From Catajapyx aquilonaris (Eukaryota): DNA of 44,143 nucleotides. Where the stretch lies: contig JYFJ02003280.1 of the NCBI GenBank assembly GCA_000934665.2, positions 1-44,143 of the forward strand. The letters run 5' to 3'. The notes beneath the pieces are model-generated. The model was not told where the DNA came from. It saw nothing but the letters and a program-made list of their open reading frames with translations, and made no database searches. Position 1 is the stretch's first letter. Each line of letters begins with the position of its first letter. Shown here piece by piece: positions 1,942 through 33,787 of the stretch. Position numbers and translations under genes: made by a program.

Positions 1942-4900
1942 CTGAAAAATCAAGCGAAAAAAAATACAGTGAATTACCAATCAGCCGGTATTTCATTCGT
2001 ATAAAACTACAAAAAGTTCCTGAACTACTTGCACCATGGACATTCAGGCATTGCGATTGGCGCAAACCCGTGGCATTGACCGGCGTGTAATCTAACCCCC
2101 AACCGTAAACCCAATACTTGATGACACTGCTTGGTCAGATCCCTTATCGACACGACCGGCCATTTCCTCGGTGTCAGGATAACATGTCACCCGGGAGCAC
2201 CTGCTTGCCACCGTGTCACCCCCTAAAATAGCAGGGTGGAGGGGAAGAGGTCACCCCGTGTTTGGCTGCCTAGTTGCACAATACATAGCCCCATACCGGG
2301 GTCAACCAGGTCTCGCAGGAAATGGCCATGCACGTGCTCCCTGAGCTGGCACACCACAATTCCTGCTCGCCCACTCCCTATACGGCACGACACGAATCCA
2401 CCATAAAAATCCCCTTAACTCTAGCCCCAGCCACCGATGTGTAGTACCACATATTCCACTCAGGGCCCCCATCTGGTCATACACACCAATAATCGGTGCT
2501 GACCACCCAGAGAGAGTACAGTCAGGAAATTCCATCCCGCTGCTGACCTCGCCGAAACCACGCGTCTCGTGTTGCCATATGCGATTGCACACACAAAGCG
2601 TGTCAAAGGTCGACCAGCAATACTCTTGTAACCAGACCGGCAGGGTTGCCCATTCTTCTAGCTTTGTTTCCGGCCAAACCCTGCCTATACAACCCTCCCT
2701 ATTGTATGCGCCGATTCCTGATCTATGTCACAAAGCATGTCTCCCCAACAGATAAACCATTGTGTACCTTACCTGGGATGCTAATGGCCCATTCTATAGG
2801 GTAGCCCAACCACTCCCAGAAAAAAAAAAGTACCAACCTAATGAATTATGCTGATCATTCACACCTAGCCGGCCATCTTGAGCTAATTCTAGAAACCTCA
2901 AGCATCCCTCCTCCCAAAGTCCTAAGAAGAAGATGAAGAACAAAAAAAAAAAACTCAAAAATCCAAGCTACAAAAGCACAAAGGCCTTCTTGGAACCCAA
3001 AAAAAGATCCCCTTTTTCTCCCTAAGGCCACGCTTGGTTCCACAGCAGGGGCACCGGCGCCTCGGCCGCCAGATTTATGTGCCCCCTGCGTCTTTTGCCC
3101 CGGGCAACCTCACACCTCTTCCCTTCCTGACCAAAGACCCTTCTTTTTTTTTTTTGCTCTTTCCTGCAGTACCCCAGTCCCCCNCCCCCCCCCCCCCCCC
3201 CTTTAGAAAATTTCAGTTCGGCTGAACAAGTGTGTGAATTAAACGTGACGTTGACGGTGCTTGTTCGTGACAAATGCACGTCAAAGTCGTTTGAAGGGTC
3301 GTGACCCCCCCTCTTCTAGGAGCGGCCTCTATTCAAGGCCCACCAAGGTCACATCTTAGGGTCTTCTGGCAGGTGGAATGCCCCCATGAAATAAATTTTT
3401 ATGCCAGTTGATGGCGTACTGGATGTATATATATGGAACAATGTTGCAATATATATGGTACGTATAATACCAGCCAATATTTCAATATCGAACAATTATT
3501 TGGCCATCTGGCCCGCGATGATGATCAGCCCCATCACAAATGACGCCATGTAAATCTCCACCGCATACAATCCGTGGCTTTGGTGGGCCCAGGTACAAGA
3601 TGAGTCCCCAGATAAAACCTGCGGCCCCCCCATTTTTTTTACTCAAGTTTCAGGATTGACTCGCGCATCACGTTGTGGTCTCCTCGCAGGTAGGACCTGC
3701 TCTAAATTCGGGACAGTTGTAAACACGGTCGGTTTCCACCTCAATAGTACCCCCCTGTCCTATCCGATTATGTCTTCTACCGCACCCTATTTGAACAATG
3801 ATAACTTATCGCAATACCAGCACACACCTGCAATGTTGCATAACTACACCCAGGTGCTACTTACACTGCCCAAAAAATGTGGGTGGCGGCTAGATACCCA
3901 TCGTGTGAAGGTTGTAGGCTTGTGCTAATGAGGATTTTATTGGGCTCTAAGTAGAGATTGGGCTCAGCAGGGGGGTGCTTGACGCGTGGGTGGGGCTTTT
4001 GGGACCCTCTCTGGCGCCTGTCGGCAAAAGTCCCTAATTTGTGAACGGCCCCGTGGCAAACTCCTTTTTTTTTTCTAGACATGTGTTGGTGGAATGTCGC
4101 CATGAATCGTCTCTCGGGCCTTCATTTGCCTCCGTAATGGTGCATTAGTGACAAAATATCCAGAGAGCTTAAGTGGCTCAATTAAATTCTATCTTTGTGG
4201 TTTTGCAGGGGGTCCAACACATTCCATCCGTTACAAACATTTGTTGGACTTTCCCACTATACCCCTGTTATGAATCGTACTTATCTATTTTATGGAGCAC
4301 TCTTAACCCTACAGATAACACCGAGTCAACACTAAACAAGGAAATATCTCCACACAACAACACCTGCCCCGTCCTACAACAAACGCCTTCGCAAATTAAC
4401 ACAATTTAGACTTACAACCTTTTTCCGTGCCACAAAGCCCCATTACGAAAGAAGGGCGTACAATTTCTGACCCCAACTGCCCCTTTCCCACCCTCCTAAA
4501 ATAGAGGTGGGTCACATATGGAGGACCTTGACAGTTCTCATATTCGTGTTTCTCCCAAGCCACTCCTACATCCCACATGGAAAACACCTGTCATGTGTCA
4601 AGGCGGGTACGCCGCGTTTCACGTCCAGATCGGTTATACGTACTCGGGGGTACCACCAAAAACGTGAAGACTTCAACTGTGGGACGGACAAGCATCGCAA
4701 ACTGCTCCACATCATTTCTAACCAAACGGACCGAGTTAAAAAAAAATGTGCGGTTCACCTTGAGAATGCAAATCAGGGGGTACTTCGTAATGTGACAATG
4801 GGTAATTAGACTGTCGATAACGCCAGATAACTGGTCTCGCCCACGCTATGTTCTCAACGCGAAAAAACACTTTTTTGCGCCCCAGTTGAAAGAGACGTAT

Positions 4901-7900
4901 CTTCAAAAAGGAGCGGGGTCGGAGGTCACCTGGCAGCCCCATTCATACGTCCTGATGAGTAAGTAGCCCACTACCAATACCGGAGTTTTATTCGCGTGCT
5001 TTATGGAGTGCGCACCAAGAAGGATGGTTATTGCTTCATTGTCCCCACCTCCTCCCCCTAAAGATGACCCATGTGGGCACAAACAGACACAACCCACACC
5101 AGGCCTTTCTACACATGCTGGAAACATCCTTAAGACAAACGAGCCTGCAAGAGGCGACGATTTATATGCTTATGGTAGCCCAGGTAAAAGGTGAAACGGG
5201 AGACGGTTTTTATACACATCCGCTGAGGTCACGCTCGGAGGTCGTCGTGACTGGTCCTGCTGTCACCAAACCCCAATTAATCTTCGGCTTTTAAATATAA
5301 ATGGCAAAAAAAGGCAGTACCCCGCAATACACAGGGTGTTCCACAAACTCCTTGGGCAGCCATATCGTGCTCAATATCCTCACAAATAGTTGCCAACAGT
5401 GCACGGGCGGTCACGTGCCCCGGCACACGTGTGCGTGTGTGGGTATATGAACCTGCGAGTGTGTCGCCTGTCACGCAGGCACACCGCCGCCTTAAACGTG
5501 TCCTGTGTGCCAACGCCCCCCTCAAACCCCCAAGCCCGCCCCCAGCAACTAACTAACCCCCCGTCACGACTAGAGAAAAGGAGAAATTGCTAATACTGAT
5601 AACCTACTTTGCATTTCGCGCTCTCTGAGACAAGTTTATATTTCCCATTCTGCTCTCTCTCTCTCGTTACAGAATGTGTTATGTTGTGTATACATTTGCC
5701 CGTATGAAATTAAAGGACCTGTGCGTCCATATAAGGACAGGCTGGCCAGAAGCCAAAATGGACAGGATTGGGTAAAGGTGAAAGAGGTAAAGTTCCTGTT
5801 ACCTTTAAAAAAAAAATGGGTCGCAAGGGGTCACTTATGGATGTCTAATATTTTCGAATGTACCAGGTACGTTCACCTAACAGCAAATCTTATCATACAA
5901 CCCAAGGCGTTTCCTTATCCAGCGCAAACTTCCTCAGACATGTTTACCCTTAGCACAAGGGGCGGTTTTACATAGCAAAAAACCCCCAACATGTGCGCGA
6001 TAAATAAATCAATGCAAAATATTCCTGGCACCACCACCTCAGCAAAAGGATGCCAAGAAAATTATGAGAACTGGTTCTCTGCTTTGCACATGAGCAACAC
6101 CCCGTGTAATCACGCCCCCAAGCAGGATTATTAATTGGTGGTGTCATAAAAATGCCGGCAGGTCAGCCATCCAAAAAAACACCGTGCACATGCCCCCCAA
6201 CATTAAAGCGCGGTAGCCCCCTCTTCTTAAACGTCACGCGCAACTAGGTGCCACCCAGAGTGACTAACGACAGCCGACAAATTGACACATTTTTAAAGAA
6301 AAAAAAACGAACCGACCCCTTGTAACACCTTCCATTAGTGGTCACAACCTCAGCCCAAAAAAAATCGGGGCTGAACACAGGTAGATGGGGGGGGGGGGGG
6401 GGGGGCNGGGGCACCCTAACCTGCAATCAGAGGGAGGGTCCGTACCCGCCCATCATGCCCCCTTCCAGGGTTCTTTTTCTGCAACTGGGGATTGTGTCAT
6501 TAGGACATTTGAGATGGGCCGGACTCATCAATTACTGGAGCCTTAATACCTGATGATTTTGGTCCCACGTAATAAAATACCTTGAGGGCACCTAAACATG
6601 CACATTCCTATTTGTAAGGAGGTGACACTTTTGAAAAATATGTGCGGACAGCATACGGATCACGTTTCCACTTCCAAGATATCTTAATTAGACCCCGAGC
6701 CTGTCCATTACACCGTAAGTGGGTTGGAATATGGATAGCTTAGAGAACAATGGCCATCGACTATTTCGCACTACACGACTTTCTCATCAAAACGAATGGA
6801 GGTCCTTTCTGATTAGCAGCAAACTACAGGGTTGCCACAATTATTTTTTTAAAGTTTAAGTCGAAGGCTGGCATACCTGTGAAAGCCCGTTATATATACA
6901 AAAAGCAGGGTGTACCTTTTTATCGGGGACACTTCACGCCACACCTGTGTCGTGATTCGAGGGCAGGTGGGCCAGGGTTCGAAGGCTTTCGCTCTTTTTG
7001 TACCTCCCCCTATTTTTTCCTATACGGCGACGCGCCCAGAATAGCTTCGTTAGTTAAAATGTCAGTATGCAAAGTCACACGTTCCTCCGGGTCGCCTTGT
7101 TGAGCACGTCTCCTTCCGTACTTTCAATATTATCGCACCCCCACTTCAGTCCACTCGATGTCACCCTACACCTCGAGTGTATCCGCCAACAATTTTCAAC
7201 AACACGGTACGTGTTATGCCAACAACTCGCCATTTTTGGTACAGCATTTCGCGTCATACTGCTTGCGACATTTTCTGTTACGGCAGAAGTGCAAATCGAA
7301 GCCGTGCGAGTAAGAAGAGGTAGGCCTTGAGTGACGTCACCCAAGGGCTACCACTTCTTACTCGCACGGCCCGTTGCACATCTGCCGCTTCGGAAAATGT
7401 CGCTAGCAGTATGCCGGACTGTACACTCAACGCATTTCTTGACTTTCATAGGTGTCCGGGGGAATGTCCACAAAAACAACTAAATTACTTCTCCGTGGGA
7501 CATGACAGAGACTGAGTGTCATCCTCGCACCCCACGCGATGACAGCAGGCCTCGACGTCAACAATCACTCTTAGGAAACCCTCCTGCAACTATTACTAAT
7601 CCTCCGGGCAGGGCCGGGAATAGGGACTGGAGGCGGAGGTACTAATAAGCTTAGTGGCTCCCATAAATCTCTTTTGCGGCTTCACCCACCCTACCTTCGG
7701 GCGGGCAACCTGGGGAGGCATAAGTGACCTTTGTCCCATCAAGGTGTAAAAGCTCTCGTTTTCAAAAGCTCCCGGGCGCCTTTTCAGGTGTCACTGATCT
7801 CCTGACGCCGACACTTGAATCCTTCTTTTTTTTGCACCAGTATCCTTGAGGACTCGGGACTCACAAAGGTGATATGGCCGTATAAATAAAGAGGAATCAA

Positions 7901-10900
7901 CGTTTATAGCCTGGGATGGATAACGGCAGGTTATATAAGGGATCGTAAATTTGTACTTTTTTAGGCGGGTGTAATGAATATTTAATTGTTAATCGTGTTA
8001 CGCCCAAGCCTTGCTCGGATTTATGCAGTTCCCTCGCTGAATATTCACACACGTTCTCAGAGCTGACACTCAATTGAATTCCTCCTCTGGCCTGCATTCC
8101 TACGATGAATTGCACATCCTGTGATTCCTCATCCTTGAATTTCCTCTCACCCCAGGAATACCAAATCAAATGCTCTCCGAATCGCTATTGTTGCTACACC
8201 ACAAAAAAAAAATATCGCGCTCTGGTAGGCCTCTTAAAAAGCGACACCTGGAAACCTCTTTTGAACAGCGCAGCGCCTCTCCAAAAAAGAAGGTCCTAAG
8301 CCCAGGCAGGGGAATCAGGTCCTTGTGGGAACAAAAGCTAGAGTCACGCAGATAGGCACAAAAGGTGCCTGGGACAGAGATTAATCGGAACCGTCTCCTG
8401 CTATTTCCACCCCCACACCCCTTATGCACCTCGCAACAAAAGGCCGGACTATTTCATATCAGGCCTCGGTGTCAAACTCAAAGGCACCGTGGGAGTCTCC
8501 CAGAAATTGGGGGTCTACCAGGGGGGGCACCACCTACTCAATAATTCGGTCTGGTCCCCCTTAATTGATTGGTCCTAAGTGGACCACCTGGTACGCCATA
8601 CCTGGCCATTTCGTATAATTCAGTTGTCTATGGCAGCGGTTCCGGAGCCGCTGGTCTATGGTGTGCAGGTGTAATTTATTTACATATCAACCACTTGTTC
8701 TGGTTTTACCATCAGTTGTCCAAATCATTACGAAACACCCTTCCCAGAAGAATTAGTGCTACCCCACCCGTTTTTGTCTCCATAACACCCGGTTCTCCCA
8801 CTTGATGTCCCACCAAAAAAAAATATAAGGGAGTTGCACATGAAACCAACCGGGTAGATGAAAATAGTGTGATTTTATGCCGAACAAGCCGTATTTCAGA
8901 TCCCCTCTGTCTAGAGAGGGCCACTCGGAGCCGGGGCTCTAAATCCTCGAAATATGTGGCCCCATAAAATTCCTTTTGAGACCGATGGAAAGAGCATCAG
9001 AGACGCGTCAGGAAGCCCGTTGGAATGACAAACGACGGTTATTGCTTATATACACATGCAACCGGGCTCCTCATATACATATCATGAAAAAATCCGGGGA
9101 GAGCCTCTGCATCACTGAAATCCGGATCGCTCCTATATACGCTACAAAAATCCCTATAAATCTTCCCTTTTTTTCGGTTGGTTGGTTGAGGCCTTTTCTT
9201 AAGGCCCCCCCTCCAGTTCACTTCTATGGGCTCCTCAAGTCGAAGGTTATATGGGACGTGTCAGAAATGAGCCCTTCTTAATTTTTTTTTTTCTTCCTTT
9301 GCCTTCTTCACGGTGTGACTTGCATGGAGTCGGCCGGATTTTGGGCGTAGACCATGAAGAAAGGTTTCAAATTGAACAAAGACTGGGCTAGCTGAGGATT
9401 CAGCGTGGTTGGGGTCAGTTTCCCCGGTATGATGCGAGTCGATTTGCTGGAATAACCCATGTCTCCGGTGCGGTTTGTTCCCATGAAGCCTGAGACCGAG
9501 CTCAGATCTGGCCAGATATCTATCCAACCACCAACTGCTAATCACACACTTGATATGCCACCAAAAATCAACAAATTTTCAATTATTACACAAATTATGC
9601 CATACGGCTGTATATATAGTACTTCCATCAAATTAACTGGTATCCTAAAATGGCCACACAACCTTTTTTTCTTCTTCTTCTTTTTAAACAGGTGCGTGAG
9701 GATCCTAATGGCGACAATGTCCACTATAAAGCCTGGGACAAGCTAAGGTGCATGTTCTGGGAACCCATTTTCGATCGGAAGACCGCCGAAAACACCGATG
9801 GCTTCTCTTGCCTTCTTTTTCCCCTCTCCCTGTTTCTCTAATCTCGTAGAAATGCTAATTGGTTGTAAAGGGAGGAGAGAGGGGTTGGTTTCTTACATCG
9901 CACCGCTTCGGGCCATCTTCAGGATGGTCACACGCACAAAAAAATATAAGGACAGACCGGTTCACGCCCCGTATGTACATCTTGTCAGTCCCAACTCCCA
10001 GCTAAATCTAGCAGACATGTGCATACACAACACGCGCACAGTATCCATTTTCTCAGCCGGTCCTAAAATGGCGGATCCAAAATGGCCCCCCTATACTCTT
10101 CTGGGTTATTGGGCTGGACATGGCCGGGACCCGTTTCCTCGCCCTAATTGCTATTGACAAATGAGGCGTCGCCTTCTCTTTACACATGTTGCCATAGACC
10201 GACCCCCCCCCCCCCTTTGCCCATGCACATGTCGCCACCTGTCGGCCTAGACACCTCATTTCACACTCTTAAAAATACCGCACTATGCGTAACGCAATTT
10301 ACGACATCCTCGTCCTGCAAGGTACTGCCTAATTTACATTTCCTGGCCAATAAGTTAATGACCTCTACAGGCCTGCTTATGAATGACCCCACCACCGCTA
10401 TAAATATTAATATGCGCCTCGATCTGTCGCCACGTTACATATCTTCCGGGGCGAGAGTTGGGCAAGATAAATAAATATTGCATTTATGCAAACCCACGTG
10501 TAAATACATATTTATACCAGTTGCCCACTGGCAAATTTCGCAATCGAAAAAAAAGGTCAACCCCGTGCCACCTATCTGTTATAACCAAGTCAGGTTGATT
10601 TATGTCATTTCGGAGGTGGAGCTAAATTATGTCTCTACATACAGATGCACAGGTATGGCCCACACTTGAGTTGAAAATATTGTCTGCGAGCGCTCGTTTA
10701 AAACCAACCTGCCTCAGGAGTGACATTGCAATTTCTTTCTGTGTTTTATATCGCACTGTCCTTTGCAGGTTTTTTATGCATGCAGATTGGGCCAGGTGAA
10801 AGTGCTTTTTGGAGAGGGTCAAAGGACTGTTTCGTCACCCTCAATGAAACCAATATGGCATTTTTTTTCCTGACCCAAAATATTCGGTCCCGCGTCCCCA

Positions 10901-14500: not shown

Positions 14501-17413
14501 TCTCATTCGCAATTAGTGTTTGCCCATGGGCATGACACTTCAGGTGAGAACCTCCATTGTTTAGTCACACACGTGACACCTGCCTTGTATGATCAACTGG
14601 ATACCGAGCAACAAAATATGGTGCACACAGAAGGATCATTTCCTTGCTCTCTACCTGTTATGGTGTAACTGACGGGTGCACCCGTAACATATTCATTGCA
14701 GATGGTATCGATGATGCCATTCCCATACATAACTCGGCGTCGATCAAAATCGCCCATAATTATTAGGTAAGCATGACGTAAGGGGCACATATTGGCAGAC
14801 AATAATTATGGTACACTTCATCAGGAAGCCATTTACGCAGCTGTGAGTCCTGTAAACATGCTTCAAATGTCAATCCCAACATGCTTGTTATCACCGATAC
14901 TAAACATCAAATATGAATGTCTCATAAATATGAAAAACGTGTGTAATTTTAAATGGCTTACACATGTTACACAAATTGTCAGCACACTACGGAATTCCTA
15001 CCACACATGCCTTGCTTTCACATGATAATAAAAATTTTATAAAAATACAACTTTCTCAGTAAGAGGACTACTGGATAAGGTGTCAATGGATTTTTTTTTG
15101 TACAATTTGCTTTTACTTCTTTTTCTAGTGTTCAGTCAACTTAAAAGGTTGTCAAATCCCTTGAGAGCACAATGTTGTGGGCTCATGATGGGTGGGCTAG
15201 CTTAACTAATGTAGTGTTTGTTTCACATGAAACCCGTGGGCAGTGTGTCAATGAGCAACTCTAGTTGCATATACATGCTGTGCTGTCACTTGAATTGCAT
15301 CATAAATCTTAGTATCGCAAAATGCCATTTGAAAAGGAAAGTAGCCTAATAATGTCAATAAATTGTAATAAGCCTTACATCTTGGCTGCACAGCAGGCAA
15401 ATGCTGCAGTTAAATTTTCTACCACCATAAAAATATAAGCAATGTCAAACTTGATCAAATCAATATTCACCACCACCTCTACAAGTGTCCCTTTAGCATC
15501 ACAAAGGCCTCATGTGGCCACAATTCATGGAATGCTGCAGTTCAATATTCTCAGAGGAGCACCTCAATTCACTATTGCAGGTGATACTGAGCCTATATTG
15601 CTTCCCTAAGGCCCTTATCTCAACACAGCATCATTCTATTCCAGACTGTAGTAAATGATTATATTGCCACATTTTTTCTTATGAACTGTTCCATTGCCAA
15701 GCGTCATCACAGTTCTGGCTGTCATCACAGTTCTGGCTGTCGCTCCAAGCAATTAGCCACTGCGGATTTTTACAGATACGGATTTTTACAGATATGAAAG
15801 TTATTGTTGCTGCTACCAACCTGCAACCAACTCTTGCAGCACATCCCACTTGTGTTCATTTGTGACTCTGGATGCAAGGAATCACCTCATGCATAAACAA
15901 TGCCACTTGCACCTGCCCTTCCATTAATCCTTAATTGCTTGCAACCATTTTACAAGCAGCTCCCTGGTGTATTGGTTTACGCAGTTACACCACCTCATAA
16001 GTCTGAAGTCTGATCTCCTCAGAACAGCTGAAGAGTTTCTTATATGAAAATAGTTTCAATGGATTTAGCATTTGCATGGGGTTTCCTATGGTTCTCATAT
16101 TTTCTCCCACTTTCAAAATCTATCCGCAACAATAATCAAATAGCCTTTTAAATTGTTCCAATTAGTTACCACATTTAATCAACTGTGCTGCTGATTGTGA
16201 ATTTTATTGTGAGAGGAAATGAGAGAAACCCGATAAAACCCATGCAAACATGAAAAGTACCCATCCAACTCTTTCCATATGAGACTATCCTCCGTCCAAC
16301 CTGGGTATCTAATTTGAAAGCACGGAGGGCTGTGATTATCCACCACACCACCATAGCGCCCTAATCAAGTCAGTCATTCTAAAGACTACGAAGCAAATAG
16401 CTATTATGCAATATCCTATTAAAATCACACCCAGCATTTTCAGAGAAAGACCTGACACAAAATTATGGTTCCATACTGAATATCTCACAGGAAACATTAC
16501 TTGCATTTGTTGTCACAATTACTGCCTCTAGAAGTAAGAGCTATCAACACTACTTCATGAAAAATTGAATCTAGCTCATATATTGTCCTATAAAAGCAGT
16601 CAGACTACCTGATATTTTGATTCCAGCAACCTACACTAATATCCGCAGTACACAATAAAAAAGTGATGTAACGTAATATTTCCTTATAATAAAGTCTGTT
16701 ATTGCTGACTTAGTTACATAATAGGCAGCGAAACTTGACCATTATATGGTCCTGACAGGTTCCTATATTCAATGCGATCATGGCGGACATAACACAAACC
16801 CACTCGGTAATAAAAATGTGTGCAAAATGGTACAACTCCTTTCTAGGCAGACTTTAACTACACTACTTTGCTGTACAGCCATTGATTCTGTTGCGCCATA
16901 AAAATCTCTCAATCACTACACTACATTTCTTACACATGTAGTTCTCTTGTGGTAGTGCTCTGCTCTTTACTGGCGCAGTAATGTACAGCACGTGGTCACG
17001 CTCACCCGTGGGGAGATTTGTTGTCTAGCTTACTACCATGTTCGGTACGGTACACCATCGTGGCAGTGCCTATCTGTCAGGCCACAGCCATTACAAATGC
17101 GGCCCAAGCCTTGTCGTTCCCAACCCGCAGCTTCACCTGCTGACCCGAACCCCAACCCAGATCCAAACCATACTCACAAGTTCTCGACCCATGGCGGTAA
17201 GTACTCCGGCACAGCCACCAGCCCCTTCTTCCCACAGTCGACAAAGCTCCCAAGACAGCTGCACATCTGTGGACATCCCTGCCCCGGGGCGGCCCTCCTG
17301 TCGATGAGCCTTCCCTGCACCATTCCTCCCCATCCCCAAAGCCACCAGCACCACCACCACCAGCTGAAGACGACGAGGAGTGTCCTCCTAGAGCAGCCCC
17401 CTCCGGCCGCCAT
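1870..17413 (-). CDS. LRIG: LRIG/lambik-like leucine-rich-repeat receptor, 5' part (coding exons 17413-17178, 11712-11641, 1941-1870); gene continues beyond the left edge of the window
   Basis: Spliced translation: MAAGGGCSRRTLLVVFSWWWWCWWLWGWGGMVQGRLIDRRAAPGQGCPQMCSCLGSFVDCGKKGLVAVPEYLPPWVENL / ELRNNEISELEEDAFAGLENLEKL / DLSSNQLRSVNASVFGSLPRLKEL. It has a signal peptide, an LRRNT cap (CPxxCxCxGxxVDC...LPxW, the form seen in LRIG proteins) and two 72-bp phase-2 LRR exons with GT-AG sites. The Ig domains are not in the window, so the LRIG assignment rests on the N-cap. Confidence 0.8.
7242..7421. mobile_element. Palindromic (foldback) MITE, copy 1, with TA flanks
   Basis: TA-CAG...CTG-TA ends; imperfect inverted arms over the whole length, centred on GTGACGTCAC (7331-7340); a reverse-complement copy lies at 26671-26842. 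Confidence 0.8.
11512..11572. repeat. (CT)n microsatellite
   Basis: About 30 TC units just inside LRIG intron 2, near the exon 2 donor. Confidence 0.95.
11641..11712 (-). CDS. LRIG: LRIG-like exon 2 (one 24-aa LRR)
   Basis: tttttcag|G GAG CTG CGT AAC...AAG CT|gtgagt; 72 bp; LxxNxIxxLxxxAFxGLxNLxxL. Confidence 0.88.
15703..15794. repeat. Two adjacent perfect short tandem duplications (18 bp x2 and 16 bp x2)
   Basis: gtcatcacagttctggct at 15703 and 15721; cggatttttacagata at 15763 and 15779. Confidence 0.9.
16205..16361 (-). mobile_element. Degenerate tRNA-derived SINE fragment
   Basis: Plus strand reads gaggaaatgagagaaacccgataaaacccatgcaaacatgaaaagtacccatccaactc...ccaccacaccaccatagcgccc. 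This resembles the reverse complement of common metazoan SINE central domains followed by an A-box-like TGGTGTGGTGG. Recognised from memory; heavily diverged. Confidence 0.35.
17178..17413 (-). CDS. LRIG: LRIG-like exon 1 (signal peptide + LRRNT)
   Basis: ATG in aagATGG context at 17413-17411; ends GAG AAC TT|gtgagt (phase 2). Confidence 0.88.
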
Positions 17414-21715: not shown

Positions 21716-24118
21716 TGCTGGACATGCCACCCATTACTCCTGTTCCGAGTTAACGTTTTTATTTTTTTGTAAATTCAACTAAAAATTATGTGCCCATACT
21801 TCATTTCTGACAATTTGGCCGAAACTGTACACTCATACTATTTGAGACGCCATGTTTTTCAATTGATTTCAATGAGCAATCAGGCTCTTAAAATGTGGGC
21901 ACGTCCTTGGACTTGGTTCACTCGAGGCCGTGACTTGATTGTAGCCTGTCATCCTCCATAGTTTGTCCGCTAAATTCGGCCTATAAATCAACCCCCCCAA
22001 CCAAGAGACAAAAAGTGTCTCCCCCACGGCGCCTGACCAGACTTGTTGAGAATTACACCTGTTTATTATACACAATTATTACATATAACTATTACATATA
22101 AAGAACTGGCAGGCTTATAGTTGGCTCCCCCACGTTGGGCGCCATTTGTGACGACTGCGACACTTTCAATAAAATACCGTCGCAATTTATTAATATTATT
22201 AATTATCATTACTATTGTACTATTTGCACTTACTAGTACAGCCTATAGTGCTTTTGGAGGCATGCAAAAGGCCATGGAACTCTGAATGTGGGGGCGGTGT
22301 TAGGGGGATGTGAATTTAACCCCATGCAGGGTGTTAAGAAAGAGATTGATGGCCCTCTACCACTGGTTGGTCAGAGTGCAGCATAATGTCCGGACTCGCA
22401 ACCTCGATTGCTATGAATTAATTTACGCCCTCGCCCAGCTTGGGCCGCCCTAATAATTTCCTAAGGGCTATAGGAATAGCACAAAGCTAGGGATTACTGC
22501 ACACAAATCTGAGTCGCAATTTAGGTAGAGAGGAGTAAACAACTGTGCTTCATTTGGAAATTATGGGTAGGATTAATTGTGCTCATTTAAAAATTTAAAA
22601 ATTTAATAAAAATGTAGTGTTGCCAACAATGTCTCCCCAACATATGAAACATGCGACCTGTGCAGGTGACCACTCCTCATAATTACAGCACTCTCCATAG
22701 GTGGCTCGCGCATCAGCCATGACCACAAAGGATCCTCCATATTTTTTTGTGACTCGTCCTGTGGTGTAATTGGCACATTAAAGGACCGGAGGCATAAATC
22801 CTAGCTTGGCCCGCTCTGAATGTCAGAGCCATGTAACATATAAGGAATGGGGATGAGAGGGCAACACCAAGATGGCCGAAGACTCAGCCTCACTGATTTC
22901 CCCTACCATCATCATAACGATGCTCGTCATGATCATAGTGATTATTACTCAGAAGGCGACACGGATCATTTCAATGATGACTTATGAGAGTTGGTCCAAA
23001 CTGGAAGAATGGGTACCCCCTATTGCTCAGATTTAACCTATCATCATCCATTATGGTCACAAGGACACTATTGCACTTAATGGTGAAGGAAGTGACTAAC
23101 ACTATACCAAAACTAAAAATCGTGCACATTTGACAGTCTTAATTAGCTGACATTAAACTAGTCACAAAATCGTAGAACAACGTTGTCCGATGTCAGTTCC
23201 GTTCGATTTAATTACAAGTTAGGTTGACGAGGGCAAGTCACGGTTCCAGTTTATGGTCGATGGTAAGTAAGCTTGGGGTTGAAACAAATGGCTCCATGAT
23301 TGGTGGGCCGCTAACAACAACAACAAAAAAAGAGTGTATAAGTGAACTGGAGCTGGGCCGTTGGCCTTTGTCAGTTGGGGACACATACATCCAAACTGAT
23401 TCCTTAATTGATTCACTTTCCCTGCCAGGGCGAGAGGATTTGATTGAGACGAATGAATTATTGATTGGCTCGTTACTCTGTCCGGTTACATGGGGGAATG
23501 CAACAATGTGTTGCTAAGGAGCTGGCTCTATGACAGTTTCAGGTCACGCACTAGGCAAGCCCTGGTCATTTTCTGATGATGAAATTTTGCTGGAAGATAA
23601 TTAATTAGTACAATATCACTTTTGGCCCACAATTTCAACCTAAGTCATACGTATTCGTCCCAAATGACATTTCATCTGATATGATATTGATTACATGATA
23701 AATCAGTGGATGATTCGACAATTCCGTCGGATGAAATATTATGCAATGTTCAGACCATGTGGTATGTATTTTCGGGTGCTTTACAAGGGCTAAACAACGG
23801 TACTTTTTCACTTTCAGCGACGTTGTACCGGTGTATCCTGACCCCCCTTAGTCCTATCAAGAGGTCAGAGTGTGCCTCCGTGCCTCAAAGTTTTGGTCAT
23901 CAATTGGCCACGATTTTTCACATTTTATAACGCCCGGTTAAAAGTCGTGCTCCTCCCGAAGTACTTTCGCGACTATCGGTAGGGTCAAAAAGGTCTCGCA
24001 TCTGCCTGCCCAGCTGGAATATCCTGTTCTACACCTGTACGATAAGCCACTTTTTTATCAATAAATTTTTAAATCGCATGCATTTGGTTTTACCAGTCCG
24101 GTCGATCGCGTTAAAATG

Positions 24119-26122: not shown

Positions 26123-27046
26123 TCAGTCTTTGAAGCTCTCGTACATACTAAGAGCCCTATCTACACGATCAGACAACCAGTCCAAATCTGCCTGTCTGCC
26201 CATTTCCTGCAAAATAAAACATGTGATCAGGAAAGTCGAATGAGGAAAGTAGTAAAATGTTATCAACATTTAATGGCCATATTTTGCTGGGAGATGATGA
26301 AGTTGGCAACAAAATTGATGGGAATGTGCCAAGTTTCAAATTATGGCTCAATAAGTATCACAATAATGCATGAATTTCTTGACAGGCCAAAATAGAGGAC
26401 ATCCTTTTTTAAACATGCGACACTTGAGTCAACTTACGACAAAATTCCTAGCGTAGGATGAGATGGGGAACCAACGGAAGAAAAGCAGAAGTAGGATGAC
26501 GACTCCAGCAATGGTTAGGCCTGTCTTCATCAGTGGTGACATGTAGGTGTTGACACTCACACTGCCTCCAGGAAGATACAGAGTCTTTCCATATCCAGTA
26601 GCAAACGGGGAAATGAACGATCCTGTAATTACAGAGTTATGAATTATGACGATTTTTTTATAGAAAATATGTCATACTGCTAGCGACATTTTCCAATGCG
26701 GCAGAGGTGCAAATCGAGTGCAAGTAAGAAATGGTAGCCCTTGGGTGACGTCACTCAAGGCCTACCTCTTCTTACTCTATCACTTCGATTTGCACTTCTG
26801 CCGCAACAGAAAACGTCGCAAGCAGTATGACGCTACGCTATAGCCAACACTTTCCTCCTCCCACCCACCAGAGGCGTTGCGGGAAACTGTGCGCCAAAAT
26901 TCCTGGACATGTTCCCAAATCATAAAAATAATAGTTGGGCACTTACTTGGTTCAACAGTGTTGGCTTCATCCTCTTGAGCCCAGCTGAAGAAGATAAACC
27001 CAGCAACGATGAGGGTCCACAACAGAAGTGAAGATGCGTTGGTCAT
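26123..27046 (-). CDS. Cluster gene A: 122-aa signal peptide + single-TM protein (exons 27046-26947, 26622-26438, 26206-26123)
   Basis: MTNASSLLLWTLIVAGFIFFSWAQEDEANTVEPRSFISPFATGYGKTLYLPGGSVSVNTYMSPLMKTGLTIAGVVILLLLFFRWFPISSYARNFVEMGRQADLDWLSDRVDRALSMYESFKD*. GT-AG introns with matching phases (1, 0); upstream UTR exon donor at 27101; AATAAA at 26092-26087. Confidence 0.8.
26671..26842. mobile_element. Palindromic MITE, copy 2, inside an intron of gene A
   Basis: Aligns along its length with the reverse complement of 7242-7421; central GTGACGTCAC at 26745-26754. Confidence 0.82.
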
Positions 27047-27455
27047 CTAAACATATTCACAATTAAAAACAAATCTTTAACACTCCAAGGAACAAACTCA
27101 CCTTTGCGTCTTTCAACGATGGTGTCCTAACTCACTGATTTTCAGAATGCAAGTGGATTTTGCCCCAGCTCTTCTTCCCTTTTAAACCCTTTGTTCTCCA
27201 CCCCCCAAAAATGCCTCCAGAATTTCCAAAAGTAGATGCAAAATCCCCAAAAAGCTTTTGGAGTAACCTGTTCCAGCTATATTGGTACCAGAAGTCGGAT
27301 TTTCCCCATCCTTTGACCCTGAGTGAACCCAGGGTATTTCCATCCGAAACAAAGGGCATTGCCTGAACAATTTCAAATATGCACCGTTTTATTTGAACAC
27401 ATGCATTGTTACATATTTAAAGTTGGTTCAGTATGTAAAAATATGTAAACAATCA

Positions 27456-28026
27456 CTAGATGCGCAATTGTGCTTCAGAATATTTCCTAAGAGCAAAGTG
27501 GACATTCCTGGTCAATATGTCGCCATCATCATTGGTGGTGACCCTCTCTCGCCTTTTGTTCCGAGGCCTATTGCCCGCCAAAAGTGGCAATCGCACTGTT
27601 GCTAAAAGCACTGTTGCCAACAGCACTACCCACAGCACAAGAACAATCTGAAACACCTGGGCCCTCAGGATCATCATCATCATTTGAGAGGTCAGGCCTG
27701 GGTTGGCCTGAGGGAAAGAAGGGGCAAACGGCCCCGGGGCATTGATGTGAGCATGTGGAGGAGGATGAACTGGAAGGGGCAACGGAGGATGCAGGTGGTC
27801 ATCCAGATGATGGTGGTCAACATGGATGTCGTGATGGTGGTGATGATGGTGCTCGATGGGTTGGTCCTCATCTTGATCCTGGTTATCACCGGAGTCTTGT
27901 CTGTTCAGCAACACATTTTTAAGAAAATAAGATTTAAAATTTAAAAAATAATGCAAATTATACATACCCAGATTGCACCTCTTCGTCTCCTCGTGGCAGG
28001 AACCATCGGTTGTATACGTAGTTCAT
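27456..28026 (-). CDS. Cluster gene B (3' ORF): His/Pro-rich single-TM protein, 167 aa from ATG 28026 (exons 28026-27968, 27900-27456); true N-terminus uncertain
   Basis: MNYVYNRWFLPRGDEEVQSGQDSGDNQDQDEDQPIEHHHHHHHDIHVDHHHLDDHLHPPLPLP...VFQIVLVLWVVLLATVLLATVRLPLLAGNRPRNKRRERVTTNDDGDILTRNVHFALRKYSEAQLRI*. Phase-2 GT-AG intron; AATAAA at about 27393-27388. Confidence 0.72.
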
Positions 28027-28116
28027 GCTTACACAGTTGGATTTTTGGATTCCCTTTCTTTTATGACAACGGTACCGGTACCGTGTTGTGCTCTACTTGC
28101 CCCTTGGTAACTATTT

Positions 28117-28405
28117 TTACGCATCGTTTTCAACATTGTCCAAATATGATATGATTCTGGGTCCAACAAGGTACGGCAACTGAGGTGGGGTAATCAAGGC
28201 AAACACGGACACTATAACCATATGCAGAAGCAAAATAAATCCAACCGCTCCCATAGAATAAAATATGGCATCCAATCCAAACTGATCCGAATACAAACTT
28301 GGGCTGAAAATTTTTAAATAAATAAATGTCATTGTTAACTACAAAAGTACACAGTATGGCCGATAATTACTTGTTGACTGTCGCAAAATTAAACTCAGCA
28401 GACAT
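28117..28405 (-). CDS. Cluster gene B (5' ORF): 73-aa single-TM peptide, or the first exons of gene B (exons 28405-28371, 28303-28117)
   Basis: MSAEFNFATVNNPSLYSDQFGLDAIFYSMGAVGFILLLHMVIVSVFALITPPQLPYLVGPRIISYLDNVENDA*. TATA box CTATAAAA at 28449-28442, caaaATG start, and a phase-2 intron (gtaatt...ttttcag). Confidence 0.6.
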
Positions 28406-28441
28406 TTTGGAGCACTCAACTGCAGCTCTGAAGAGTCCTAA

Positions 28442-29171
28442 TTTTATAGTAGGTCTTGCACTATGACCCCTTCCAGCTGGCCCTCTACCGGACACTTGAT
28501 CTAGATAGATCCCGTTTTGTAAGCACTTTTTCTACACCCTGTTTTCAAAATGTGGAAGCATTTCAATAGGATTTTTTTTTGAAGGAAATAAAGTAGTGGT
28601 CAAAATAGTTTACGCTGAAAATTTTGTGCTATTACTATTTGAAGGCTATGGTCCTGACATTTTTACACTATTTCCCACTATGGCCAAGTTGTGCCTACAC
28701 GCCATCTAGGGATCGTCTGGTCCTCTGCAAACGCAATATTTTCTGCAATTGTCGTGACAATTGTCGTGACATGTCAGTGCTGTCGGATGTGGGCATTATT
28801 ATGGGCAGCCAAACCCACGAAGGTCGACAACAACAGAACCGGTCCCAAATAGGGCTGGGGGCCAACCAAAAAACCCTGAACGTTACATGCATGTAATAAA
28901 CATGGTATCCTGAAAAAATGCAACCCACTGAGCAGGCTACCTAATCAGGCCAAATATGACCTCTGTAGGCTTTTAAAAAGCCCAAATATGTGTCCTACTT
29001 TGAAATGAAATCAATGTCCAAAACCGGAGTTTGTAGCCCCCGAAGTACAGTTGCGATTTCCCCCAACACTATTGGTTCTCAAACTGGTTCGAAAAACCGT
29101 TCCTGAGTTTTTGGACCAAAAATGACCCATGCCCCCTGAGTGACCCCACCCCCTGAAGTGGGGGTATAAAA
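28442..29171. promoter_or_regulatory. Divergent promoter region between genes B and C, with two TATA boxes and Grainy head-like sites
   Basis: TATAAAA on the minus strand (28448-28442) and on the plus strand (29165-29171); GAACCGGTCC at 28836 and AAACTGGTTC at 29081. Confidence 0.55.
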
Positions 29172-29255
29172 ACCCATCCAGGTGGGGTTCACCGTCACAA
29201 ACCACCTGAAACGCCCTCAAAGGTCATCTAGTACAGCACCAACTCCAACTCCAAA

Positions 29256-29921
29256 ATGGCCATCGGTCTTGGTAAGTTGTCACTTTGATTACTTTTGTAC
29301 CATCATTGCCAATATGTTCCTCCTCAGCTGTGGTGCTTCTGGCTGTGTGCGCCGTGTCTTCAGCAGCCACTGTTGAATCCAGGCAAATGGGACCTGGAGG
29401 ATATGGGATGGAACCTGTTGGCGGACCTATGGGCGGGCCTCCACCTGGGGGTATGATGGGTGGTATGCCTCCACCACCTATGGGAGGCGCACCACCCATG
29501 GGCGGCCCCGGGCCCTTCCCCTTCCCGCTGAAAGACCCTGGATTCGCAGTGACCTCTGGCTTCGAAGGCTTCCTGGTGCCCAACAGCTGGTGGGGCGGTC
29601 TTCTTCCATGGGGTCTCGACGGTGTCCTGATCGTCGGTGGGGTCATCCTGGTCGTCGTGGTCTTCGTGGTGCTTCTGGGGGCCATCTTCGCCTGGCCCGA
29701 AAACTGGTGGAAGGACGGAGGTATCTTCGCCAAGAAGGCTGACAACAAGGATGGCGATGCCAGGTTAGTACAAAACAGTACTTCAAGTTGACCCGTACTG
29801 ACCCCCATGTCTTTTCAGGGGGTTCATCAACTCCCAACCATTCTTGGAGCTGACCACCACTGTGCTGGATGCCATCGACAAGTACAGCAATGCCGGTATT
29901 GAACACGCCAAGAAGGAATAA
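29256..29921 (+). CDS. Cluster gene C: 184-aa signal peptide + Gly/Pro/Met-rich + single-TM protein (exons 29256-29271, 29328-29763, 29819-29921)
   Basis: MAIGLAVVLLAVCAVSSAATVESRQMGPGGYGMEPVGGPMGGPPPGG...KDPGFAVTSGFEGFLVPNSWWGGLLPWGLDGVLIVGGVILVVVVFVVLLGAIFAWPENWWKDGGIFAKKADNKDGDARGFINSQPFLELTTTVLDAIDKYSNAGIEHAKKE*. TATA at 29165, aaaATGG start, 56- and 55-bp GT-AG introns, AATAAA at 29975. Confidence 0.88.
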
Positions 29922-30165
29922 TTTGTGCGACCTCGTGACCTACTGTAATTTAATTATGTTGTTATTTACTGTGCAATAAATTATTAGACGCTACGCCTAA
30001 ACGGTATCGTCCTTGACCCCGCTTATTTCCGGAAAAAAAGCAGACTTTTAGGAACCAGTTTGGTGGGTTAAAATAGAAGGTCATTGTTCCAGCAGGTACG
30101 ACAGAAGACATCACTGACCAATATTTCAGAGCATTGGAACTGTTGCAACAGACGGCACTGACACC

Positions 30166-30592
30166 ATGGATCAAATCAGGTGAGCCTAGGTATTGTATTG
30201 GGTAACACTAACAATGTAACTAACAATTAACATGTACCGTCAGGCTGACCCTAATATTACTGGCTGCTCTGTCAGTGGTGCTTGGAAGTGTATATAAGAC
30301 TGATGTCCAACGGTACCGGTACGTCCAGCCCACAAGCTGTTGCATACACTGGCCAACAGCTAGGAGGACCTACCGACAAAACAAGCATCCAAAACGTCGA
30401 CGTCACAAACACCCCAACAGACGTAACGACCATGAAAACCCTGGGTACGGCACCGGACGACTAGTCAACATATTCTTCGGCACCATCCTCCTGGTGTCAA
30501 TGATGCTCCTTCAAGGATACATCAACTGGCTTTTGGGCATATCAAACAGCGACGGTAGATCAATAGAGCACGCCCAACATGTATTCGCATGA
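30166..30592 (+). CDS. Cluster gene D: 120-aa signal peptide + Arg/His-rich + single-TM protein (exons 30166-30179, 30244-30592)
   Basis: MDQIRLTLILLAALSVVLGSVYKTDVQRYRYVQPTSCCIHWPTARRTYRQNKHPKRRRHKHPNRRNDHENPGYGTGRLVNIFFGTILLVSMMLLQGYINWLLGISNSDGRSIEHAQHVFA*. accATGG start; 64-bp phase-2 intron gtgagc...cag. Confidence 0.72.
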
Positions 30593-30669
30593 ATGTACAC
30601 TTGGGGGCATATAAAAAAAATTGAGTAAAATTCACTTAAAATTTTGTCCAGTAGTGTTGTGTCCCGAAA

Positions 30670-32067
30670 TTAGCGTTCTTCTCCAGCGCAGTCTCCAGCA
30701 GCCGACTGGCTCTTGGCGTCCGTCTTGGTCTTGTCATCCTTGCTGGCCTTCATGTCTTCCTCTCTGTACATCTGCTGCTTGTTCCTCCTGTGTGCGACCA
30801 ACTGATGCTCCAGTGGACGGGCTGTATATGGTCGGTCGTACTCTTCGTCGCTGTCCACACTAGTACCACCGGATGGCTCGCAGGGGCAGCCTTCGCCCGA
30901 TATGCCCACACCTTCAACGCACAGGTCCAGCTGGCTGGTTGACCCACGATTGCACACCAACTGGGGGTCGCTACGTATGGCCCGGAGACCCATGAACCGC
31001 CCACGGGCCGCCAGTGATGTTGGGAGAGGCACTGGGGGCAGCTTGTCCTCCCTAGGAGGGGTCAGCTTCTCCCAGGTGGTATGCAGACCAACGCGGTTCT
31101 CACGGATGTGGCAGGCATACACGGGTACGGTGGCGAAGGGCTTGCAGGTCACATCGGAGGAGTCCGGTGACACGTAGGTGTAGGTACATGGGGGTATGCC
31201 GAAATTGCGACGGGTCAGCTCTCGGAGGCAGGACCGCTCCAGGGCAGGGAGGCCGTACTGGGCTGCCATACACAGAAGGTCGGTCACCAGTCGCTCTGAC
31301 CCGCAATGACGCTCCCACATCATGGCCTCACCCAGTTCGCCCAGTCCTGCACGGGTCAAAGGTCATGCCAATGGGCAGTAGCAAGTTGCCAGGCAATGGC
31401 AATTTTTATTTATTATTTACACGTGTTAATAACTCTTCAGAAATGTCCATGTCCCACTTACCCTCCTGGACGTCCCGGTCTTGAAGTTCGATGACTTTGA
31501 TCTTGTTGGCCAGCTTGCCCTCAACTGTGCCTAGGTCGATGCGACAGATGATGGTGACCTTGTCCTCTTGCTCTTGTAAGAATCCCATCCGGTTCTGACA
31601 GAATCGGTCCTTGGGAACCAGGTCGGGGAAACCCGATCGGTTTTGGCCCCGGGGCGTATGGAAGACAGCCTTGCCCTCCCTAGCCACCATGGGCTGCCAG
31701 GGGTTAAGGGACACTCCCAGCAGGTACCGGATGTCCGCCTTTTCCTCCTTCTTCGAAGGGGTCTCCATCCTTATGTACAACCCCAGCTTCTCTTCCGTAT
31801 CGGACGACGGCGACGGTACCACTTCCAACCGCCATCCGTGCATTGTCTAACAATAGTGGACAACAATCACGCTCTCTGCTAACTCGCTTATTACGACTAT
31901 AAACTGACCTCGACCCCCATGTAAGGGTCACCGGTCCAGAAGATGGGGGACTCCAGCACGCATCCCGGCGGTAGCAGTCCGATGTTGCAGACAATCCATC
32001 GGAACTCATAAGTGTAGTCAGACCAGAGATCCTCCAGCGAAGGTTCCACCATTTCCTTCGAGTTCAT
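30670..32067 (-). CDS. Divergent SPOP/roadkill-like MATH-domain protein with only BTB remnants, 406 aa (exons 32067-31909, 31846-31462, 31346-30670)
   Basis: MATH hallmarks: YEFRWIVCN, LESPIF, GWRLEVVP, LGLYIR, SGFPDLV, DKVTIICRI. These are followed by a BTB C-terminal-like segment DLLCMAAQYGLPALERSCLREL (cf. SPOP [22 protein letters not shown]). GT-AG introns with phases 0 and 1 keep the frame open. Confidence 0.8.
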
Positions 32068-32710
32068 CTGTAGAAAAGTACAATGGCTACCTGCCACACC
32101 TGGTTCAATACCAGCTAAAGACAATACCCACGGTCAACTCAGAGGGCCAACTCTTGAATTTCGGCAACTCTACGAGGCCCACCAGAGACGGGGACGTTCC
32201 ACGAACCGACTTGTGTCAGCTCCACTGTCGGGTCACCTCTCAACAAAAGCTCAGTTTACCATAACGACGGTGGTCACCATGGCATTGCCAATTGGCGACA
32301 TTGCTTTGCGGGGGTCAAAGCCCCAAATCTGGGGCAGGTCAAGGAACAGGACAACATGGGGTGCATTAGAAAGGGGCAATCGGAAAGGGAAAGAGATAAC
32401 AGCACTTCCTTCCTAACGGAACATGGCCTTCAACCCACATCTGGAGGGTCCATCAGGATTTTTGGGTTTGTTGCCAGATGGACAGAGCTATTATAGGAAA
32501 GGTGGAGGGACCCAATTTTGGGGGTCCAATGTGGCACCCTGTTATAAGGGGGGGACCCGTTAGGTGTTTTGAGAAAAAGGGACTGCTCTTGGGGTGGAGG
32601 TTATTGTCCAAAAGAGAAGGTGGACTGCACAGGTGAGTTGCAGGTATCTCACACAGCCGCAGAGTTGTGGTACTGTATGGTGCATCCAGTCCATTATTGT
32701 TTCTTACAGC

Positions 32711-33787
32711 ATGATGTTCTGGTGTGTTCTGCTGGCCGTTGGCCTGCATACGGCTGCAGCCTCCAGTTTGGAGAAACGCATGCTCATTGTGCCTCCAGGA
32801 GAGCTCATGGAGAATCCGTCATCCAACATCCTTGGGGAAGCACGCGGAGGGTCCAACGACCATATTCAGCTCCCTAAGGCTCTGCTGGAGAGCTTCCAGG
32901 ATGACGACGACCACCTTACTATTTCCAACAAGTTGGTGCCCGACGACAATAATAACCACACGACTGAGAATGACACCCTACTGGAGACACCACCAACGAA
33001 GAGTGGTAAGTAGTATTTCATACAAAATCAATGTATCAATAAATGTGGTAATCTGACATTATTGGATCCTTCATTGCATACCCAAGTGGCCAGTTCTCCA
33101 GGTGGACTAGGCTGGACACACTATGCTATACATGATCATACTTTTAGAATCTCTGTGCAAGAAAATTTTAAAACCACGAAATCCACCATCCAAGTCATGC
33201 TATTTACTATATCTGCTTTTAGGTTTGAAGTCATTCTGGTCCATCATTCTCCGCTTCATACGCAATCTGACACACTCATACGCTGTGAAGGGGCAAAGGC
33301 GAGATGACCATGAAGATGAGATCCTCACTCATCCTGTGAAAAACAGTATCACCAGGCTCATAGGAGCTGTAATGGGTCACGAGGACTGCCGCCGACATAC
33401 TGCCTGCAAAGCTGGGAAATACATGGAGGCCTTCCGGGGAAAGAATATTGTCCTTCTGTATGAAAACAATTTTTTATATTTTATATTTTCTGAGCAAGTG
33501 GCATAGTTGCTTTTTCATTGTGGTCTAAAACAAAGTTCAGTATGTGGTTGAATGACAGGTGCCATGCCAAATGACATCATTAGACATTGTCTTGACCCAA
33601 GTGTCCCAAGAGAGGAAATAAGGAACAAGAGGTCCCAAATTGATTGTAATAACACTATTCTTGCAGAGTCCTGGAGAAATGGGCCCCAGACACCTGGATG
33701 GACACTGTGACAGTTGCCAAGAAAGCAGCCACCTACGGAGACGACTGCACCACCTTCATCTGCAGCCTGCCAGTATCCGACTCTTAA
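32711..33787 (+). CDS. Cluster gene E: 216-aa secreted-pathway protein with a C-terminal 4-Cys module, DM4/DM12-like (exons 32711-33005, 33223-33457, 33667-33787)
   Basis: MMFWCVLLAVGLHTAAASSLEKR...PPTKSGLKSFWSIILRFIRNLTHSYAVKGQRRDDHEDEILTHPVKNSITRLIGAVMGHEDCRRHTACKAGKYMEAFRGKNIVLLVLEKWAPDTWMDTVTVAKKAATYGDDCTTFICSLPVSDS*. UTR intron 32633-32709; AATAAA at 33818 and 33839. The DM4/DM12 label is inferred from Cys spacing only. Confidence 0.8.

Follow-up and report, generated by a model that had tools for sequence, protein, structure and literature searches.

A conserved cluster of small secretory-pathway genes in Catajapyx aquilonaris and its possible relation to DM4/DM12-type proteins

Do the small neighbouring genes for membrane and secreted proteins found on one contig of Catajapyx aquilonaris form an old cluster, and to which known arthropod system could such a cluster be related? 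The contig, JYFJ02003280.1 of NCBI GenBank assembly GCA_000934665.2 (286 Mb), was analysed over its complete length of 44 kb (44,143 nucleotides), which we refer to as the window. Six small genes or exons for membrane or secreted proteins lie between positions 26,123 and 33,787: A (26123-27046, minus strand), the last exon of B (27456-27900, minus), the exon F (28117-28303, minus), C (29256-29921, plus), D (30166-30592, plus) and, beyond an antisense coding region (30670-31846, minus), E (32711-33787, plus). An initial annotation of this DNA had proposed that the genes are an old tandem group, their outer parts unrelated and a helix behind the membrane segment common to them. Our results bear this out, and the order F-C-D-E is kept in another hexapod. 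The cluster is real and ancient, and other arthropods retain C, D, E and F, both as sequences and in their order. Our best explanation, put forward tentatively and at slightly less than an even chance, is that this ancient syntenic cluster of small secretory-pathway proteins represents outliers of the DM4/DM12 (PF07841)-type arthropod group.

Orthologous loci and gene order

Two unrelated metagenome contigs, L013 (7 kb) and L015 (20 kb), which were fetched with a profile of the E family alone, carry the remainder of the cluster. This six-sequence profile matched 52 metagenome stretches, three of which were confirmed; the third of these (L014) has an E-type gene alone within 3 kb. By local-alignment score against shuffles (z), C reached 33.9 and 28.8 to its orthologues in L015 and L013, D 17.2 and 20.2, and E 30.6 and 34.1 with identical intron phases, while a second E-type gene in L015 (E2) reached 16.4. 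F, the membrane-helix exon, reached 12.7 to L015 only (tblastn E 2.6e-7), as L013 starts just before C. The genes run A'-, B2-, B1-, F-, C-, G+, D+, E2+, E+ in the springtail-like L015 and C-, G+, D+, E+ in L013 (the sign giving the strand), compared with A-, B-, F-, C+, D+, antisense gene, E+ in the window; C-D-E is thus kept in L013 and F-C-D-E in L015. C lies on the plus strand in the window and on the minus strand in both other loci, and is thus inverted in the window. The keeping of gene order between such distant arthropods points to long-term selection on the cluster.

A and B have positional counterparts only, with z of 2.9 for A to the gene in its position in L015 (A') and 0.7-1.0 for B; tblastn matches of B in L015 were discarded as poly-His noise. 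For gene G, which stands between C and D in both L013 and L015, we looked in five gaps of the window for a counterpart, and the best z of 3.3 among 180 comparisons was rejected. The two G genes themselves show no significant likeness to each other. At the expected site of an inverted G (28640-28911, minus), frames of 45-70 codons with hydrophobic and helical stretches lie behind a good acceptor; they show no significant similarity to G.

A profile of C matched 20 proteins among the 8000 candidates scored. Three of them are named entries, all uncharacterised springtail proteins: XP_021961345.1 (Folsomia candida LOC110857040), CAL8082169.1 (Orchesella dallaii) and CAG7825131.1 (Allacma fusca). 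These are full-length C orthologues in which the tail helix is kept; searched by identifier, they were not found in papers, and they are without name, family or function. No insect name appeared among the matches from these 8000 candidates, which is a weak negative. Over the conserved part, identity to the three springtail proteins was 65-70% for the C of L015, 48-50% for that of L013 and 36-46% for that of the window, and these differing identities show that C is common to at least three distant lineages and that L013 and L015 come from different animals. For E, a phmmer search with exon 2 gave five matches. Four are true homologues, all of which end at one and the same boundary of the exon; the remaining one, a gastropod repeat protein (P0001), was rejected as chance. 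A profile of the E family matched 14 proteins among 8000 candidates scored, none informatively named, and a word-based search with E exon 2 among longer proteins confirmed neither of its two candidates. Searches of the C. aquilonaris genome with parts of A, B, C and E returned the window only, plus chance matches (L010 and L012); the B2 exon of L015 gave one weak match there (E 0.19) and the G exon of L013 none. No cluster member or homologue has a Pfam match, and no exon of the window matches a Pfam family near its cut-off.

The tail helix

Across the 88,282 six-frame positions of the window, the pattern L[TS]xxVxxA[LI]xxY has three matches, which lie 5-11 residues before the stop in the final exons of A (26141-26176, minus), B (27480-27515, minus) and C (29850-29885, plus). 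As the pattern was drawn from these genes, its count alone is circular. For an independent test we built a 12-column matrix from the tails of 14 C orthologues, excluding C of the window, and applied it to 21 regions. The tail of window B scored 13.7 (0 of 2000 shuffles as high; region p 2e-4), that of A 8.2 (28 of 2000; region p ~9e-3) and the helix of E 8.4 (18 of 2000; region p 1e-2). The tails of D and F in the window fail the matrix (232 and 324 of 2000 shuffles as high), with no score in their frameshifted frames either. In the other loci, p was 6e-5 for A', 1e-3 for L015 F, 3e-3 for both L015 B1 and L013 D, borderline for L015 D and L013 G (0.05), and 0.21 for L015 B2, whose tail fails. 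Because a matrix made from C orthologues recovers the tails of B and A, we conclude that the helix exceeds chance.

In a second test, a hidden Markov model (HMM) was made of the membrane segment plus tail from C orthologues alone, and only the tail was shuffled, 200 times. No shuffle was as high for window C, L015 D, L013 D or A'. One was as high for window D, 3 for L015 B1, 5 for window B, 11 for window A and 15 for L013 G. L015 F, L015 B2 and window F were equalled by 107-124 shuffles, and window E scored negative. A profile of membrane segment and tail, of the kind that the initial annotation had recommended, recovers the D orthologues and A' (above 200 of 200 shuffles), window B (above 195 of 200) and, borderline, window A (above 189 of 200), and does not recover window F or E. 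The alignment of the tails in the initial annotation stands for B and A, which the matrix recovers, and is weak for E, as Leu-Thr at the first two motif positions occurs in 1 of 16 E-family rows. Its remark that D stops early was correct: both D orthologues are single-exon genes that keep a tail helix of their own, which D in the window lacks. Taken together, the sequences support a shared tail for C, B, A' and the orthologues of D; the support is moderate for A and weak for E. In several members the membrane segment is followed by an amphipathic helix of 12 residues. A YxxPhi motif stands at the helix end in 11 of the 14 C tails and in window A.

The likeness of the tails could also be convergent, with short post-membrane amphipathic helices all alike and the cluster a conserved neighbourhood whose genes are co-regulated and for the most part unrelated. 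Comparisons of whole proteins from the window are indeed mostly insignificant (z of at most 1.2 for A against the others; best B-C at 5.4-6.7 and C-E at 5.2-5.6), window A is borderline in the HMM (11 of 200 shuffles), and the two tests disagree on L015 F, for which 4 of 2000 shuffles were as high by matrix versus 107 of 200 by HMM. However, among 3170 twelve-mers from unrelated real frames one reaches the score of A and none that of B, and the D orthologues and A' beat all tail shuffles. We regard convergence as clearly unlikely.

Gene models and surroundings

Signal peptide and membrane helix calls rest on hydropathy throughout. The models of A (122 amino acids; exons 27046-26947, 26622-26438 and 26206-26123), C (184; 29256-29271, 29328-29763 and 29819-29921), D (120; 30166-30179 and 30244-30592) and E (216; 32711-33005, 33223-33457 and 33667-33787) are open frames with GT-AG introns. 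An N-terminal signal-type stretch (hydropathy 1.6-2.4) was found in A, C, D and E and is absent from the B and F models; A, B, C, D and F have one membrane segment each and E none. In A, the signal peptide is followed by a short outer part and a membrane helix at residues 64-82, with an AATAAA at 26092. C has a Gly/Pro/Met outer part and a conserved pre-membrane segment ahead of its membrane helix (residues 104-122), and D an Arg-rich outer part, a membrane helix at residues 78-96 and a shortened tail. The last exon of B encodes an acidic and His/Pro-rich outer part, a membrane helix and an Arg-rich linker, with an AATAAA at 27393. It has a phase-2 acceptor and is open with either of two candidate first exons, both on the minus strand and without a signal peptide: 27968-28026, which would be its own (open frame, phase-2 GT donor, 67-nt intron), or the short 28371-28405, near a TATA-like box at 28448, which splices in frame to F as well. 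The hydrophobic frame upstream of B is the separate conserved exon F, the tail helix of which is degenerate in the window and kept in the L015 orthologue.

These models modify the initial annotation in several respects. Of its five to six spliced genes, A, C, D and E hold up, and it missed F and left the antisense region between D and E unmentioned. The layout it gave for A, C and D is right as to a hydrophobic, signal-type N-terminus and one internal membrane-type helix each; for the outer part of A, low complexity is not evident (6 Thr, 6 Gly, 5 Val and 5 Ser in residues 23-75). Its extension of this layout to B, for which it gave no definite N-terminus, is not borne out: neither of the two 5' models tried for B has a signal peptide.

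In L015, at 2290-3680 (minus), a short phase-2 first exon without a signal peptide is open with three downstream membrane-helix exons, possibly an alternative-last-exon gene. Part of the window cluster could likewise be one or two genes with alternative exons, F and B being alternative last exons and the front of D being spliced across the antisense gene to the cysteine exons of E to give a membrane-plus-cysteine-domain protein. F and B each give an open frame with the first exon at 28371-28405, as the three downstream exons of L015 do with their phase-2 first exon, there is no AATAAA downstream of D, F too is without a canonical poly(A) signal, and D has a phase-1 GT at 30555 matching the phase-1 acceptor of E exon 2. 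Against this, the D donor is weak, the D genes of L013 and L015 each consist of one exon that includes a tail, and B also has a plausible first exon of its own with an intron of typical length. As a whole this explanation appears quite improbable; its F/B part, which is the likelier, is a possibility at somewhat under even chances, and the D-E part is very doubtful. Both parts are compatible with our best explanation.

The antisense region between D and E is a diverged coding region of two open frames (31846-31406 and 31362-30670) unrelated to the cluster, and no clean spliced model was obtained for it. It looks MATH-like by pattern; it has no Pfam or PDB match, its frames, tested singly, have no match in L013-L015, and it is single-copy in a search of its own genome. 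It is convergent with D, the stop codons being ~80 bases apart. As it lies directly behind D, its insertion may have clipped the D tail.

Left of the cluster, one exon (17178-17413, minus) has a signal-type stretch and an LRRNT match below cut-off, and a pattern scan found no further leucine-rich repeat (LRR) exon in the 17 kb between it and the contig end. To the right lies a protein-tyrosine-phosphatase (PTP) gene, represented by PTP domain exons. The initial annotation had proposed a synteny test between these neighbours as putative LRIG and PTPN12 orthologues. Neither the LRR nor the PTP neighbour is matched in L013-L015, and the flank of L015 contains genes of the Snf7, nitrilase, RRM and molybdopterin-binding types. 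In both metagenome loci E is closely followed by a nitrilase-family gene, adjacent to it in L013 (5973-7059, minus) and behind the Snf7 gene in L015 (13102-13857, minus). About 3 kb left of A, an isolated frame of 55 codons (22878-23047, plus) contains a membrane-type stretch (hydropathy 2.7).

Relation to DM4/DM12 and Osiris proteins

Gene E differs from the other members. Its signal peptide is followed by an acidic spacer, a long helix (motif register 33324-33359) and a helical domain with four cysteines (C154, C160, C204 and C209) after the helix, all kept in L015 E and in the homologues P0009 and P0016. The best internal 19-residue hydropathy is 0.71, giving no membrane helix, and E is thus predicted to be a secreted protein with a four-cysteine domain rather than the variant of the membrane layout for which it had been taken. 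An AlphaFold model of P0009 (mean pLDDT 60) places the motif in a long helix (pLDDT 81-86), with three further helices around the cysteines; compared with 48,161 PDB chains it gave none at Z of at least 5, which is uninformative for a low-confidence helical model. A PDB sequence search with E exon 2 returned a single match, judged to be chance.

Four conserved cysteines near the C-terminus are reported as a trait of DM4/DM12 proteins (PMC12825958), and within the cluster E alone has them. DM4/DM12-type genes also have an amphipathic helix before a C-x5-C pair and, in some members, a membrane segment and GRS-type linker ahead of the domain. The genome of C. aquilonaris has five PF07841 matches, three of them over the cut-off. 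In L006, a gene scoring below the cut-off, a membrane exon and a GRS linker are followed in frame by the helix LMARVDDALSDF and then by the C-x5-C pair, and the helix overlaps the start of the PF07841 match. Eight DM4/DM12-type frames of this genome were considered, seven of which could be scored with the C-tail matrix; in three of the seven the tail register stands just before the C-x5-C pair (p 1e-3, 4e-3 and 9e-3), which does not support the view that the motif is private to the cluster. One of the three is over the PF07841 cut-off, one is a sub-cut-off match and one is a neighbour without a Pfam match. Scored alongside these frames, the helix of window E had p 2e-3. In hhalign, the C tail and the E family both align with the DM4/DM12 set in the proposed register, and in the ESM Atlas, E-family domains adjoin clusters with 13-16% PF07841 members (scores 0.85-0.89, leads only). 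DM4/DM12-type cysteine frames are themselves clustered, on contigs C238 (L020 7897-8508 and 6328-6972, both minus) and C1240 (L022 2648-3094, minus; 6912-7220, minus; 7833-8183, plus), and some neighbours of true PF07841 matches on these contigs escape the HMM, one of them with a CxxKTAC pair like that of the E family.

Several results weigh against the DM4/DM12 explanation. The window is not among the five genome matches to PF07841, E exons scanned singly do not match it (curated cut-off 22 bits), and no window exon or full-length E homologue (P0009, P0016) does so at E up to 1 or 10. The cysteine spacing of E is tighter than in DM4/DM12, its helix is about one turn longer, and A, B, C, D and F are without any cysteine part. 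Four of the seven scored frames, including the strongest PF07841 match, are without the tail register, and hhalign was not significant, with small alignments (E 0.078 for C tail and 0.5 for E family versus the DM4/DM12 set, 0.47 for C versus E). The matrix and HMM nulls are uncorrected for the general likeness of amphipathic helices. In the E family, only Leu/Ile at motif position 9 is kept in all 16 rows, and the motif is unrecovered in three of four E homologues scored by matrix, the fourth being weak (p 0.024). There is also a conflict of topology, since the helix would face the cytosol behind a membrane segment and the lumen in E, a secreted protein. Finally, window B and C are without YxxPhi, and two of the 14 C tails have Phe in place of Tyr, which fits the face of a helix as well as a sorting signal. 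Overall, the link of the tail helix and the E domain to DM4/DM12 is suggestive and not significant, and we judge it roughly as probable as its absence.

Alternatively, A, B, C, D and F may belong to an independent undescribed family with a homologous sorting tail in the cytosol, spread by tandem duplication, with the tail and E both unrelated to DM4/DM12 and E a co-clustered secreted partner. The lack of Pfam matches, the non-significant hhalign results and the weak conservation of the motif in E orthologues would follow readily from this, and the topology conflict is avoided. It leaves aside the helix register before a cysteine pair in three DM4/DM12-type frames of the same genome, the ESM Atlas neighbours of E and its four-cysteine spacing, and we consider it rather unlikely.

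Under the DM4/DM12 explanation, the tail helix would be the first helix of a DM4/DM12-type four-cysteine domain. The ancestral layout would be signal peptide, variable outer part, membrane segment, helix and cysteine domain, of which the cluster would hold a split form: A, B, C, D and F would keep the membrane segment and helix and end there, and E would keep the helix and cysteine domain without the membrane segment. The membrane members could then be single-pass proteins co-produced in epidermal cells with the tail in the cytosol, a topology suggested for B by 4 basic and 0 acidic residues in the 15 after its membrane helix. The retained helix, which is of YxxPhi type in most C orthologues, might serve in the cytosol for docking and sorting on a route from the endoplasmic reticulum (ER) through the endosome to the apical membrane, and the unlike outer parts (Gly/Pro, His/Pro and Arg-rich) may contact the forming cuticle, with E as a secreted partner. 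An epidermal or cuticle role is proposed purely by analogy to Osiris 17 and 24, which carry DM4_12 after the membrane segment and the knockdown of which is reported to lead to cuticle and hatching defects (PMC12825958; PMC11151929). For the proposed site of action, Drosophila Desiccate (Desi, CG14686), likened by description only, may be a functional analogue: it is reported to be a small single-pass protein (261 amino acids, which sets it apart) at the apical microvilli and assembly zone of the epidermis (PMC4661605).

The cluster resembles Osiris genes, which Shah et al. define by five features (PMC3284338), in being a conserved syntenic cluster with a Tyr-bearing tail, one membrane segment in all members but E and a putative signal peptide in A, C, D and E, and in that variable parts are conserved within orthologue groups. 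Osiris proteins are also reported to carry YxxPhi motifs and to act in endolysosomal traffic (PMC3674991). Three of the five features were tested and not found, and by sequence the cluster genes are not Osiris, in agreement with the initial annotation. DUF1676 (PF07898) has no match in window exons or homologues, and a genome search finds it only on contig C135 and weakly on C4581. For the N-terminal two-Cys region, Cys is missing from A, B and F, the single Cys of C falls within its signal peptide, and D has an adjacent pair that both orthologues lack; the AQXLAY motif is absent from the seven window models tested. In further contrast to Osiris, B and F are without a signal peptide, orientations are mixed, and the cluster is present in springtails. 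The true DUF1676 match on C135 (L026, 55329-55601) means that this genome has Osiris-type genes as well as the cluster genes, on separate contigs. A syntenic cluster of genes with signal peptide, membrane segment and Tyr tail is thus of a known kind; an instance in non-insect arthropods with a split layout, or any paper on these genes, was not found in the literature covered, which falls short of most subscription papers.

Gore-tex/Osiris23 is reported to reside in the ER with its N-terminus in the lumen and to drive the formation of nanopores (10.1101/2024.08.20.608717). A more far-reaching and distinctly improbable proposal is that non-insect hexapods and crustaceans have in this cluster a counterpart of the Osiris cluster that predates insects. 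Its members would share a DM4/DM12-derived tail helix ancestral to the AQXLAY region, and the module would pattern the outer cuticle by ER-to-apical traffic in the manner of Gore-tex/Osiris23 in flies. The springtail epicuticle is nanostructured, and such a counterpart would imply a module age of more than 400 million years.

Osiris genes shape cuticle nanostructure and have been described as insect-specific, which raises the question of how springtails and crustaceans accomplish this. Should the tail prove to be the first DM4/DM12 helix, a large class of small unannotated arthropod membrane proteins would be truncated members of one superfamily, linked to Osiris 17/24. The unnamed conserved genes of this cluster are concrete targets for RNA interference in Folsomia candida.

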